A stretch of DNA of 64,000 nucleotides from an uncultured Alphaproteobacteria bacterium (GCA_949292205.1 CASEYR010000001.1:2721-66720), one strand, 5' to 3'; positions 48,399 to 53,215 are shown, counted from the first letter of the stretch. Made by a program: numbers and translations. Notes: a model not told the origin generated them from the letters alone.

Positions 48399-49400
48399 TC
48401 ATCGACTGCCATCATGGAGGGATACAACAGATTTCGGTTTAATTTCATTCTGTTTTTTCTTTTTGGAATCTTGTGTGGCAAATGAAGATAGCAATTCAAT
48501 TTTCCATGCATAGGAGGCCGGAGTTATTTCATCTCGTTGTTTATCAGCCAACTTTAAAGAGTCCAGTTCATCAAGATAGGGGGCTCCTTTCATCCAAAGA
48601 GATTCTGCCATTTCGGGTGTGTTGGCATATCTTATCAATTGCGAATCTTTTACGGTTGCGCCAGCTGTAAATAATTCATTAGTTTGTTTTAGATTGTTTG
48701 ATGAAATTGCTTGATAAAGCAAAGGTTGTAGGATTTTTTTTCCCGTCGCTGTTTCAAAAGCGGAATGTCCTTGATTGTCTGACACAGCTAATGTTGCTCC
48801 GATTGATGCTAAATAAGCAGCTGTTTTGAAATGTCCTGCACGTCCTGCATACCAAAGTGCGGTTTTACCCTCTTGATTGGGAGTATCTACATGAATTTTT
48901 CCGCTTTTAAATAAAAACTTCACTAGATCTGTATCGTCTCGCAGAGCGGCAGCTCTGAATTCATGAGCGATTTGTTCGGGGCGAGCATGTTTTAACCATA
49001 TCTGTTTTTGTTCATTAGATCGATTTTTTTGAGTCATAAACGTTGTACCATCGGGCAGGGCAGATCCTAATGAAATACCTCCCATTCGACAGAAAGCAAT
49101 ATTTTCTGGTGTCAGAGAGTTTAAGTCACGAAACATCACATTTTGAATTATTTTTTTTAAGTGATTTTTATCTGATGGATAGATATGTTGTGCCATCAAT
49201 TTCTTAATGGTATTCATTGATGTACTGCAGTCCAAAATATGTTTCCCGTTAGGAGTTTCTTCCTTAGCCCCCTTTGACCTGTAATACAACACGGCATCTA
49301 TGTCACCTTGGCGAACCGCCTCTTCAATCGGACGCAATCCAGTCTTTTTATCCGGTTTATCACCAAAAATGGCATACTTTACTTTATCAATCAGTTTCAT
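48399..49400 (-). CDS. ankyrin-repeat protein
   Basis: 333 aa with ANK-like units, for example GKTALWYAGRAGHFKTAAYLASIGATLAVSDNQGHSAFETA. AAGGAG lies upstream. There is no signal peptide. Confidence 0.7.
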   Translation of the reverse strand: MKLIDKVKYAIFGDKPDKKTGLRPIEEAVRQGDIDAVLYYRSKGAKEETPNGKHILDCSTSMNTIKKLMAQHIYPSDKNHLKKIIQNVMFRDLNSLTPENIAFCRMGGISLGSALPDGTTFMTQKNRSNEQKQIWLKHARPEQIAHEFRAAALRDDTDLVKFLFKSGKIHVDTPNQEGKTALWYAGRAGHFKTAAYLASIGATLAVSDNQGHSAFETATGKKILQPLLYQAISSNNLKQTNELFTAGATVKDSQLIRYANTPEMAESLWMKGAPYLDELDSLKLADKQRDEITPASYAWKIELLSSFATQDSKKKKQNEIKPKSVVSLHDGSR

Positions 49401-51087: not shown

Positions 51088-51504
51088 TCAGCGATACAAA
51101 CGAATGCCGGCTCTATCCAATTCAGCCCGCCCTTGCGGATCATACTGATAGTAATACAACATTTCCCGTTTGTTAATTGTGTTAGCATCAACAGCTGCTT
51201 CGGGGACACCCCAAATAACTGAAATCGGCCAAAACAAGAAATTCAAAACGCCGTAAAGGGCATGTGATGAATCGCTTCCATTGCCGGTGGCTAAATAAAA
51301 GTTGCCAATACCGGGTAGAATATTCAGCATCGCCGCGCCAACCGGACTTGCCGGTGGCTCAAAAGAGCCAATCGGGCGATCAATCGTAACACCATGCCCT
51401 TTTAGTTGCTGTAATTGAATTTCTTCTTGACGTGTTAGATGTGTACATCCACAGGTTAACAAACAAGAAATTAATCCGAAGGTTCCTATTTTATTGATTA
51501 TCAT
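51088..51504 (-). CDS. small putative lipoprotein/membrane protein
   Basis: 138 aa. The signal-like N-terminus has Cys residues (GLISCLLTCGCTH), followed by a hydrophobic segment (VLNFLFWPISVIWGV). The SD GGAAG lies 3 nt upstream. Confidence 0.6.
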   Translation of the reverse strand: MIINKIGTFGLISCLLTCGCTHLTRQEEIQLQQLKGHGVTIDRPIGSFEPPASPVGAAMLNILPGIGNFYLATGNGSDSSHALYGVLNFLFWPISVIWGVPEAAVDANTINKREMLYYYQYDPQGRAELDRAGIRLYR

Positions 51505-51523
51505 AAACTTCCTTTCACCTAAG

Positions 51524-51627
51524 AAAAAAGCGTCCTGGTGAGGGACGACCGGAAGTTAGAACCTACCTTACGAATAGAGTGATATATTCATCGGTAAACC
51601 GATCTATTTTATCACCTTCCGATCGTC
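51524..51627 (-). promoter_or_regulatory. structured 5' leader with terminator-like hairpin (riboswitch/attenuator candidate, class unknown)
   Basis: On the minus strand, a 12-bp P1 (51627-51616 with 51555-51544) encloses two further stems. P1 shares 4 nt with a GC hairpin (51547-51531) that is followed by a U6 tract. The mismatches are G-U only on the minus strand. Confidence 0.45.
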
Positions 51628-51714
51628 AGAATAAAATAGTTTTGTCAATTTGACCTAACGATGTAAAGAGGGGGATTTTAATCCCCGGAACGATTTTTAA
51701 TCATTCCGATAAGA

Positions 51715-51743
51715 AGCATAGTTTTTTTCTCAACAAATGGCAA
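51715..51743 (-). promoter_or_regulatory. sigma70-like promoter for the leader and lipoprotein transcript (TTGCCA-17-TATGCT)
   Basis: On the minus strand, TTGCCA at 51743-51738, a 17-nt spacer, then TATGCT at 51720-51715. Confidence 0.4.
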
Positions 51744-51756
51744 GATATTTTTCGGA

Positions 51757-51785
51757 TTGACCCAAAATCTCTTTTTTGATATAAT
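51757..51785 (+). promoter_or_regulatory. near-consensus sigma70 promoter of the merR-family gene (TTGACC-17-TATAAT, TG-extended)
   Basis: TTGACC at 51757-51762, a 17-nt spacer ending in TGA, then TATAAT at 51780-51785, 26 nt before ATG 51811. Confidence 0.6.
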
Positions 51786-51810
51786 AACTCTTAATTTAAA
51801 AGGAGAATAT

Positions 51811-52257
51811 ATGGGATATTCTATCGGTCAAATTGCCAAGAAAATAGGTCTGACAACACATACGTTGCGGTATTACGATAAAGAAGGTTTATTGCCGTTT
51901 ATGCAAAAAAGCAAATCGGGATTACGTGTGTTTGGCGAAAAAGATATAGAATGGCTAGTGCTTATTGAATGTTTAAAAGGTGTCGGTATGACATTGAAAG
52001 ACATTAAGCAATATATTCATTGGGTTCAAGAAGGGGATTCGACTCTTGAAAAACGTCTGGACTTGTTTAAAAAACAGAAAGAAAAATTAAATGCTCAGAT
52101 GGTTCAATTAAAGCAGTATCAGAAAAAAATTGATTATAAAATAGCTTATTATACCGAGGCTGTTAAAAAAGGCACAATCAATGCGGCGGAAAATAATGCT
52201 TGCCTGAAGGCTGAAAAAGAACGTATTTTTGGAAAAACGCTCGGTAAGGGAAACTAG
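51811..52257 (+). CDS. MerR-family transcriptional regulator
   Basis: MGYSIGQIAKKIGLTTHTLRYYDKEGLL is the HTH, followed by a coiled-coil dimerisation helix. There are no C-terminal metal-binding Cys. AGGAG lies upstream of ATG 51811. Confidence 0.8.
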   Translation: MGYSIGQIAKKIGLTTHTLRYYDKEGLLPFMQKSKSGLRVFGEKDIEWLVLIECLKGVGMTLKDIKQYIHWVQEGDSTLEKRLDLFKKQKEKLNAQMVQLKQYQKKIDYKIAYYTEAVKKGTINAAENNACLKAEKERIFGKTLGKGN

Positions 52258-52258
52258 A

Positions 52259-53215
52259 ATGGATCTGACCCCCGAATTAAAAAACGCGATTGATACGTTA
52301 AGTTCTGCCTATTCTTTGTCAGAGTTATCAAAGGAATCTGCTTGTATCAGTCATCGTTACAGAAATGCCGAACGATTGGGACAACGATTGCTGACAACCG
52401 AACAACAAGCCGTAGCCTATGCGGTTACTCGGATGCCGGCGACGTTCGGAGCACTCTCATCCGTATTAAAAGATATCCAAGATTTGGTAGGGAATATAAA
52501 AACGGTTACGGACGTTGGTTCCGGAACGGGTGCGGCGGCTTGGGCGGCGGATACTGTTTTGGCGGTTGATAAAATAACTTGCTTAGAGCGAGAGGATTGT
52601 ATGCGTTTTATCGGGCTTCGTTTAATGTCCGGCACAAAAACGGGAGATAAAACATCTTGGATGTCGTTTGATTTGGCGGATTTAAAAATACCTCCTTCAT
52701 CTGATATGGTTATTGCCGGCTATGTTTTAAACGAACTGTCTTCAAGTATTCAAAGGCAAGTTATATTAAATTTGTGGGAATCGGCACAATCTGTTTTAGT
52801 TATTGTTGAGCCGGGGACTCCGGCTGGATATCGGAATATATTGTTGGCTCGGGATACTTTAATTTCTGCCGGCGGATATATTTGGGCACCATGTCCGCAT
52901 CAGAGTTTATGTCCGTTAGAGCAAAATGATTGGTGTCATTTTGCCTGTCGTGTTGCCAGAACAAAACAGCATAGACTGTCAAAAGGGGGCGTGGCACCTT
53001 ACGAAGATGAAAAGTTCTCTTTTTTAGTCGTCGGTCGGTATCCGTCCGATAAATCGTATGCTCGTGTTTTAAGACATCCTCTTATCCGAAGCGGATGTGT
53101 CGGATTGACGCTTTGTTCGGCAGAGGGTGTTCAAAATACGGTTATCAGTCGTCGTGATAAAAAAAAGTTTCAATCGGCTAAAAAAGCAGTATGGGGCGGT
53201 CGTTTCGGCCAGTAA
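52259..53215 (+). CDS. Rsm22-family SAM-dependent methyltransferase
   Basis: 318 aa with YAVTRMPATFGA, DVGSGTGAAAWA, and the C-terminal Cys cluster PCPHQSLCP...WCHFACRV typical of bacterial Rsm22 homologues. Confidence 0.7.
   Translation: MDLTPELKNAIDTLSSAYSLSELSKESACISHRYRNAERLGQRLLTTEQQAVAYAVTRMPATFGALSSVLKDIQDLVGNIKTVTDVGSGTGAAAWAADTVLAVDKITCLEREDCMRFIGLRLMSGTKTGDKTSWMSFDLADLKIPPSSDMVIAGYVLNELSSSIQRQVILNLWESAQSVLVIVEPGTPAGYRNILLARDTLISAGGYIWAPCPHQSLCPLEQNDWCHFACRVARTKQHRLSKGGVAPYEDEKFSFLVVGRYPSDKSYARVLRHPLIRSGCVGLTLCSAEGVQNTVISRRDKKKFQSAKKAVWGGRFGQ

Follow-up and report, generated by a model that had tools for sequence, protein, structure and literature searches.

Mutually exclusive, covarying helices upstream of small lipoprotein genes in uncultured Alphaproteobacteria suggest a pseudoknotted leader switch related to sRNA-Xcc1

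Introduction

Does the DNA without an open reading frame (ORF) that precedes a small lipoprotein gene in an uncultured alphaproteobacterium encode a regulatory RNA, and how might such an RNA act on the gene? The question is raised by positions 51,524 to 51,743 of a 64,000-nucleotide (nt) stretch from an uncultured Alphaproteobacteria bacterium (GCA_949292205.1 CASEYR010000001.1:2721-66720), referred to here as the window. An initial annotation of this locus described a riboswitch-like leader on the minus strand, in which a long irregular stem and a terminator lay claim to the same bases. Comparison with relatives makes it probable that the stretch is the approximately 200-nt 5' leader of the lipoprotein mRNA (with some 185 nt before the U-run of the terminator and some 205 nt before the ATG), and that it belongs to a family of pseudoknotted leaders acting in cis as two-state, ON/OFF conformational switches. 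Both sets of helices on which such a switch would depend exist in the family, covary and exclude one another, and the interval from the terminator to the gene is too short to hold a promoter of its own.

Results

A structured minus-strand RNA and its homologues

Folded as RNA, the minus strand of the region (211 nt) has a minimum free energy (MFE) of -66.3 kcal/mol and a z-score of -4.41, with none of 200 shuffled sequences folding equally well; the z-score of the plus strand is -1.69. A consensus scan finds a sigma70-like promoter at 51743-51715 (TTGCCA 51743-51738, a 17-nt spacer and TATGCT 51720-51715; here and below on the minus strand unless stated otherwise), which is the sole minus-strand promoter-like site of the intergenic region and would place the transcription start near 51708. 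In 22 of 39 family members, a site of the form TTGnnn-17-TAnnnT scoring at least 8 of 12 occurs 67-112 nt 5' of helix P1; an in-gene control yields 2 of 39. These results agree with the minus-strand leader RNA, free of ORFs and starting at this promoter, that the initial annotation had proposed, and the promoter, hairpins H1 and H2, long stem, terminator, Shine-Dalgarno sequence (SD) and both G.U wobbles all lie at the minus-strand coordinates it had assigned to them.

The homologue set comprises 84 protein clusters with 205 encoding stretches in species-representative genomes, nearly all of them metagenome-assembled genomes of uncultured gut or rumen Alphaproteobacteria, and 80 of these loci were fetched (loci are cited by L numbers). 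BLASTN comparison of the leader with the loci reveals similarity over the part extending from the stem to the SD, upstream of orthologues, and an alignment of 11 sequences gives a clear consensus with compensatory changes. A first covariance model, R1, finds 42 instances of the conserved structure on the strand of the lipoprotein gene and scores the window at 80.6 bits; a second, R2, finds it upstream of orthologues in 40 of the 80 loci, with the window at 63.6 bits. Each instance is on the same strand as the gene and 33-65 nt 5' of its start codon.

The conserved three-way junction

The covariance models and the covariation define a three-way junction at 51627-51544. It is closed by P1, a 9-bp core pairing 51624-51616 with 51555-51547 that contains a G.U wobble (51622/51549) and carries a window-specific extension of 3 bp to 51627/51544; the closing strands including the extension are GACGAUCGGAAG and CUUCCGGUCGUC (51627-51616 with 51555-51544). 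P2 (51615-51610/51584-51579) leads through the loop motifs AAUA (51608-51605) and GAAUA (51589-51585) to P2a (51603-51599/51594-51590), which the initial annotation had called P3. The pairs of its long irregular stem stand, but the 23-nt segment regarded as unpaired (51578-51556) holds a conserved hairpin, P3 proper (51577-51573/51567-51563), and the junction strand J3/1 (51562-51556), and the stem becomes a three-way junction.

Across P1, P2, P2a and P3 in 41 instances, 94.6% of the alignment cells are paired and 17 of the 22 pairs show double-sided changes, whereas a slid control, with partners shifted by one to three columns, leaves 27-44% of the cells paired. The variants of the P1 core covary as GGAAG/CUUCC, GGAUG/CAUCC, GGAGG/CCUCC and GGGAG/CUCCC. 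The stems are thus conserved in relatives with compensatory changes, the comparison to which the initial annotation had referred its proposal.

Upstream of the junction the leader carries three further hairpins. H1 (51707-51687), identified by folding, has one G.U wobble (51703/51691) and a counterpart of variable sequence at the same position throughout the family. H2 (51686-51671) reads GGGGA-UUAAAA-UCCCC and is followed by a linker (51670-51661) containing CUUUAC (51668-51663), the 5' strand of the long-range helix PK1 described below. H3 and an A-rich stretch behind it occupy 51659-51639; H3 is 86.8% paired in the family alignment.

Terminator and Shine-Dalgarno sequence compete with P1

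Directly 3' of P1, a hairpin with a U-run follows in 38 of 39 instances, with a median stem of 8 bp. In the window this intrinsic-terminator-like hairpin is CGUCC/GGACG at 51547-51531, followed by C and U6 (51529-51524). The overlap of the terminator with the P1 3' strand, pointed out in the initial annotation, is a property of the family: in the 38 members with a terminator, its 5' arm shares 4 nt with the 3' strand of the 9-bp P1 in 28, 8 nt in 3 and 1-3 nt in 7. Because the shared bases form the terminator pairs adjoining the U-run, full P1 and full terminator are mutually exclusive. The terminator of the window overlaps the core P1 by 1 nt and the extended P1 by 4 nt, and the fold with full P1 (-56.2 kcal/mol) compares with -52.3 kcal/mol for the terminator combined with the inner 8 bp of P1.

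The 3' strand of P1 has a second alternative partner. The SD, GGAAGUU (51512-51506, core GGAAG 51512-51508), which precedes the ATG at 51504-51502, complements AACUUCC (51557-51551), formed by the end of J3/1 and the P1 3' strand. The complementarity between CUUCC and the SD had been noted before; it is real, and it covaries with P1. In the SD, AGGA is followed by A in 13 of 14 leaders of the GGAAG type, and by U or C, never A, in 21 leaders of the GGAUG type. Cognate anti-SD:SD duplexes average -9.2 kcal/mol, against -5.65 kcal/mol for non-cognate combinations, and 88.9% of the cells of this helix are paired in 17 GC-rich members. The consensus scan of the window predicts no promoter-like site between the terminator and the ATG; since, in addition, the U-run and the SD are too close to accommodate a promoter, the gene must be transcribed through the leader element.

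An upstream segment competes for the other strand of P1

The segment just 5' of the junction can pair with the 5' strand of P1; in GC-rich members the complementarity includes that of P2. The resulting alternative hairpin, P0, pairs UUCCAACC with GGUUGGAA in L022 and CUCCGACC with GGUUGGAG in L018b. P0 is 96% paired in an alignment of 17 sequences; its cognate duplexes average -17.6 kcal/mol against -10.2 kcal/mol for non-cognate ones, and 4.5% of the non-cognate pairs are equally stable. The third pair of P1 is an A.C mismatch in 10 of 17 GC-rich leaders (alignment A6, columns 110/191), while P0 stays Watson-Crick at the same base (columns 95/110), switching between U-A and C-G. On these alignments, selection seems to tune the balance between the P0 and P1 folds.

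Folding of the stretch between P0 and the U-run, both included, yields P0 together with the terminator as the MFE structure in 35 of 38 members, and forcing P1 costs 4.9 kcal/mol on average. As the P0 fold is the lower in energy in these 35 members, the conserved junction is not their ground state without extra stabilisation, as a switch predicts. The three exceptions are the window, L001 and L041. In the window, UUCUGA (51631-51626) pairs with UCGGAA (51622-51617) to give a P0 (51631-51617) that occupies the P1 5' strand; at -6.4 kcal/mol it is the least stable P0 in the family. The counterpart of the relatives' P0 5' arm has decayed there (51636-51629, UUUUAUUC against UUCCGGUC in L001). The junction fold of the window (fold A) amounts to -56.2 kcal/mol and the P0 fold (fold B) to -52.7 kcal/mol.

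A different competitor was considered and rejected, namely an antiterminator in which the upstream A-run and the upstream segment (segment 1) would pair with the terminator 3' arm and U-run: its cognate and non-cognate duplexes average -6.2 and -6.6 kcal/mol.

Two long-range helices join the 5' hairpins to the junction

The linker 3' of H2 pairs with the whole P3 loop over 7-12 bp. The sequence of this helix, PK1, differs in nearly every lineage (for example, ACACAAUCAG/CUGAUUGUGU in L070 and CUAAAUGAAUCUA/UAGAUUCAUUUA in L046). In the 17-sequence alignment, 7 of its 8 pairs show compensatory double-sided changes and 85.7% of the cells are paired; comparison of cognate and non-cognate duplex energies supports it too. 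The second helix, PK2, is formed by the H2 loop and J3/1 over 7-10 bp, and approximately 98% of the cells of its 7 pairs are paired, with double changes in 3. Of 19 distinct J3/1 sequences, 16 find their best upstream match in the H2 loop, as an uninterrupted duplex of 7-10 bp; the remaining three, as judged by eye, pair with a hairpin loop closer by. The two helices are arranged symmetrically, the loop of each hairpin pairing with the strand just 3' of the other hairpin. Given this symmetry, an assignment of PK1 to fold B alone is no longer preferred, and either helix may belong to fold A, fold B or both.

Both helices are traceable in the window. PK1 is short (CUUUAC 51668-51663 with GUAAGG 51571-51566, in the P3 loop and 3' arm) and has changed compensatorily between the window and its closest relative, L001. 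PK2 joins the H2 loop and its 3' side (51681-51674) to J3/1 and the base of P3 (51563-51556), with 7 of 8 positions paired and one A.C mismatch. The weakening of P0, PK1 and PK2, together with the extension of P1, biases the window copy towards the junction, or presumed ON, state; it is an intact but ON-biased member of the family.

The junction is a distant relative of sRNA-Xcc1

No Rfam 15 family reaches its gathering score anywhere in the window, and 20 related loci gave only tRNA and RNase P. Weak matches to preQ1-II, plastid and miRNA models within 51400-51900 were set aside as chance. The best sub-threshold match is to RF02221, sRNA-Xcc1, at 25.8 bits in the window (E 0.028; gathering score 53). 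The statement in the initial annotation that no riboswitch class could be recognised therefore holds at the level of gathering scores, and needs amending in that the junction is related to RF02221. The best family member tested, L041, reaches 36.3 bits (E 6e-5), and none of the 20 loci attains the gathering score, while true Xcc1 loci score 69-73 bits with Rfam's own model. The similarity is reciprocal. Models built from alphaproteobacterial leaders only detect true Xcc1 loci: R1 finds L082 at 28 bits, and R2 finds L081-L084 at 27-41 bits (E 1e-7 to 7e-4) and L087 at 35.9 bits. By these sequence and structure models, the leader junction is a distant relative of sRNA-Xcc1.

The RF02221 match spans the entire junction architecture. 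Shared are a P1 of 9-10 bp with an SD-like 5' strand, P2 with its AAUA...(P2a)...GAAUA internal loop, the P3 hairpin, and a U-rich J3/1 that ends in AAC or AGC (UUUYNNAAC, then RCC). The true Xcc1 loci examined, from Neisseria, Aeromonas, Nitratidesulfovibrio, Pseudomonas and an E. coli O157 prophage, also possess an upstream H2-like hairpin whose loop is complementary to J3/1, followed by a linker complementary to the P3 loop. From the presence of this hairpin and these long-range pairings it follows that the 87-nt Rfam model covers only the 3' domain of a larger leader; RF02221 seems, on this comparison, to describe just part of the element. The regions with the upstream hairpin are L081:1380-1570, L082:1380-1569, L083:1370-1572, L084:1400-1580 and L087:2390-2584. 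After the linker, these loci show a terminator-like hairpin and a run of U6-U7, with AUGCC next in three of the five.

Xcc1, like the leader family, lies directly 5' of a co-oriented gene. Its downstream genes include Ant in the E. coli O157 prophage (Xcc1 45 nt upstream), a BRO family protein and, as read from ORF translations, ORF6N- or KilA-N-like proteins; an ORF6N domain protein follows it in APSE phages (10.1101/2020.03.17.996009) and symE in Xanthomonas integrons (10.1101/2025.06.18.660453). The leader family differs from Xcc1 in several respects. Its scores stay below the gathering value of 53 bits, its hosts are uncultured gut and rumen Alphaproteobacteria, and its downstream gene is a chromosomal lipoprotein gene rather than symE, Ant, BRO or ORF6N. 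Xcc1 is known from integrons and prophages of Xanthomonas, E. coli O157, Xylella and APSE phages, whereas the leaders occupy varied chromosomal contexts rather than integron cassettes, prophages or plasmids on which a symE- or antirepressor-type gene follows. The alphaproteobacterial leaders also add P0 and a separate overlapping terminator: P0 was not seen in two Xcc1 loci checked by eye, and a hairpin with a U-run after P1 was absent from the four loci inspected. Finally, Xcc1 is annotated as a trans-acting sRNA of which only the 87-nt junction is modelled. A search of the available literature found no reinterpretation of Xcc1 as a riboswitch and no description of the alphaproteobacterial leader.

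Downstream genes, leader variants and neighbourhood

The gene behind the leader (51504-51088) encodes a lipoprotein of 138 amino acids (aa), with LTCGC as its lipobox and two conserved motifs, PGIGNFYL and WPxSxxWGxP. Pfam and NCBIfam assign it to no family, and its AlphaFold2 model (predicted local distance difference test score 80) is all-helical with no fold match in the PDB. The RNA is also found in front of two small lipoprotein genes of other, unrelated families (129 aa and 109 aa), in a second copy at L018 (58-136, minus strand) and on two metagenome contigs, L085:3141-3652 and L086:5131-5572, which score 59-70 bits; the contigs were found with a paralogue-specific DNA pattern, a generic pattern being insufficiently specific. 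The associations of the RNA thus cover three unrelated small lipoprotein families, and antirepressors and symE for its Xcc1 relatives.

Tandem copies occur in three loci (L002:2630-3000; L001:2547-2631 and 2875-2959; L074:2631-2713 and 2871-2954). L002 has two complete units in succession, and the first copy in L074 is a bare junction without H1-H3. The gene behind the second copy in L018 runs beyond the end of the locus as fetched.

Another leader, type B, lies approximately 200 nt upstream of genes of the same lipoprotein family. Ten loci were aligned and folded, and about 20 in all were recognised by eye (L008, L019, L024, L028, L030, L031, L034, L036-L038, L042-L044, L050, L052, L071, L014, L017, L005 and L067). 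Its layout is the same, with H1, H2 (GGAGACUACAAAAUCUCC), H3, a segment CCCCGAC, P1 (GGUCGGGGAG/CUCUCCGACC) and P3, then J3/1 (UUUCGAAC or UUUGUAC), a terminator and the SD GGAGA. The P3 loop again matches the linker between H2 and H3, as in L042 (ACAUAACG/CGUUAUGU). The long P2 domain of type B is unrelated and has no GAAUA loops.

Behind the lipoprotein gene of the window, a strong GC hairpin with flanking A- and T-runs (51079-51059) separates it from the convergent ogt gene. By its sequence, this is probably a bidirectional terminator that makes the lipoprotein gene monocistronic. On the other side lies a divergent MerR-family gene (51811-52257, plus strand), closest to NmlR-type stress regulators at 96.6 bits, below the cutoff; its ORF overlaps, as listed, the start of an Rsm22-like methyltransferase gene (52229-53215, plus strand). 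MerR was considered as a linked regulator and rejected, the synteny of merR, ogt, rsm22 and gpsA being common only to the window and L001; judged by this distribution, the merR neighbourhood appears incidental. Farther away, the window encodes an ankyrin-repeat protein of 333 aa (48399-49400, minus strand), which is unusual for free-living bacteria and consistent with a host-associated lifestyle.

Discussion

The leader combines a structured 5' untranslated domain supported by covariation with an expression platform that is mutually exclusive with the junction fold. The initial annotation was correct that P1 and the terminator cannot form together, but the fold is a junction inside a larger pseudoknotted leader, and the platform logic was incomplete: the competition between P0 and P1, the two long-range pairings and the similarity to Xcc1 were missed. 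In the mechanism we favour, fold A would be the ON state. The three-way junction with full P1 would tie up the basal nucleotides of the terminator 5' arm and the anti-SD AACUUCC, RNA polymerase would read through and the SD would be free. In fold B, the OFF state, the upstream segment would pair with the P1 5' strand as P0, and the freed P1 3' strand would complete the terminator or, in transcripts that escape termination, pair with the SD. The direction of the switch, with the junction as ON, is our inference. Something would then have to stabilise the pseudoknotted junction to turn the gene on, most likely a small ligand, or else a protein or the kinetics of folding. The most economical idea is stabilisation of the junction by a ligand; we advance a small ligand as the trigger tentatively, at somewhat less than even chances.

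This proposal has precedents. The adenine-sensing pbuE and add leaders are transcriptional and translational ON riboswitches, and they share with the present leader a three-way junction closed by a P1 whose 3' strand also belongs to a terminator or anti-SD. As in ON riboswitches, the conserved junction of the leader is not the lowest-energy fold unaided, and tandem copies exist. The leader departs from them in matching no riboswitch family, in controlling genes that offer no metabolic clue, and in possessing P0 as a competitor upstream and two helices that reach back over long range to a 5' hairpin. The alternation of pairings (upstream segment with P1 5' strand, P1 5' with P1 3' strand, P1 3' strand with terminator or SD) also resembles the 1:2, 2:3 and 3:4 pairings of trp-type attenuators, which differ in having a leader peptide. 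No conserved leader peptide over segment 1 is present in the 42 upstream regions read: candidate ATGs vary both in occurrence and in frame, only a subset has an ATGAT in its H1 loop, and the GC-rich members contain no conserved ORF. The term riboswitch is applied to this leader as a hypothesis.

Several observations weigh against a ligand-operated switch in cis. No ligand can be inferred from the small lipoproteins encoded downstream. The P2 domain with its GAAUA...GAAUA loops is replaced in type B leaders, and is therefore unlikely to be a shared ligand pocket. In the window P0, PK1 and PK2 are weak, and just 1 nt of the terminator is shared with the core P1. The covariation between the SD and P1 may reflect few independent evolutionary events, and PK1 and PK2 may either dock H2 on the junction, as in fold A, or form an alternative extended duplex. 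The first promoter-leader-terminator unit of L002 is complete, yet no gene lies directly behind it. Xcc1 itself is an RNA of 88 nt by Northern blotting and rapid amplification of cDNA ends in Xanthomonas (PMC2996969), and is abundant with nearly no ribosome coverage in enterohaemorrhagic E. coli O157 (PMC5331693); this accumulating RNA of about 88 nt has been called trans-acting.

The alternative that best survives dispenses with the ligand, and we give it about one chance in four. The competing helices would fold in order during transcription (first P0, then P1, the terminator and the anti-SD:SD helix) and keep the gene tightly off, the outcome being read out by temperature, polymerase speed, an RNase or an RNA-binding protein. 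Type I toxin mRNAs have metastable leaders that operate in this manner. P0 is local, forms before the P1 3' strand is made and belongs to the lower-energy fold in 35 of 38 members; SD-like and anti-SD-like segments recur along the leader, and the two leader variants do not share a conserved P2 domain. Relatives are found in front of antirepressor genes and the toxin gene symE, which have to be kept silent (10.1101/2025.06.18.660453). However, simple sequestration would not call for a three-way junction, a pair of long-range helices and conserved unpaired GAAUA loops that recur in Xcc1 from distant phyla, and no factor has emerged as a candidate.

It is less likely still, and in our view improbable, that the main product is a free small RNA resembling sRNA-Xcc1 or phage c4, terminated or processed, with read-through into the lipoprotein gene as a secondary event. 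The P3 loop and J3/1 would then act on complementary sequences in trans or in the same operon. The c4 mechanism involves pairing at two sites, which the short covarying segments of PK1 and PK2 resemble; like the two segments of c4, they are short, lineage-specific and complementary, and would make an RNA-RNA contact. The c4 antisense RNA of phages P1 and P7 (RF01695) controls Ant (PMC8201110), and Xcc1 relatives precede antirepressor genes of this type, 45 nt upstream in the case of Ant. The reciprocal similarity to RF02221, the abundance of the 88-nt Xcc1 with its scarce ribosome coverage and the gene-less unit of L002 point the same way. In the alphaproteobacterial family, however, both partners of PK1 and of PK2 lie upstream on the same transcript, downstream of one conserved promoter, rather than at a target ribosome-binding site, and the architecture differs from that of c4, for which Rfam gives no match at E up to 10 in the window region and none at gathering score in the Xcc1 loci. 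The RNA is always co-oriented with, and 33-65 nt 5' of, a gene that has no promoter of its own, and the SD of that gene covaries with P1. That the hairpins are a chance or degenerate intergenic feature without function in this genome is scarcely credible, for although the window has the weakest P0, a mismatch in PK2 and a short PK1, it scores 80.6 and 63.6 bits, retains an intact junction, terminator, promoter and anti-SD pairing, and shows the compensatory change in PK1 relative to L001.

If the cis-acting switch is the correct reading, poorly known gut and rumen Alphaproteobacteria possess a large, complex regulatory RNA in which at least nine helices covary, two act over long range and one pair is clearly mutually exclusive. 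This RNA would be an orphan riboswitch candidate with a clean platform of P0, P1 and terminator. The RNA annotated in many pathogen genomes as the trans-acting, virulence-linked sRNA-Xcc1 would be only the 3' domain of a leader that always precedes a gene. Studies of it in Xanthomonas, Xylella and the prophages of E. coli O157 would take a new direction, and small lipoproteins would be linked in their control with antirepressor and toxin genes. It is possible, though we regard it as doubtful, that the whole sRNA-Xcc1 superfamily including this leader is a widespread cis-acting, ligand-sensing RNA, a new riboswitch class of approximately 190 nt with two pseudoknots. The catalogued 88-nt 'sRNA' would then be merely its terminated or processed junction domain, and the class would control lipoproteins in gut Alphaproteobacteria and antirepressors and toxins on proteobacterial prophages and integrons.

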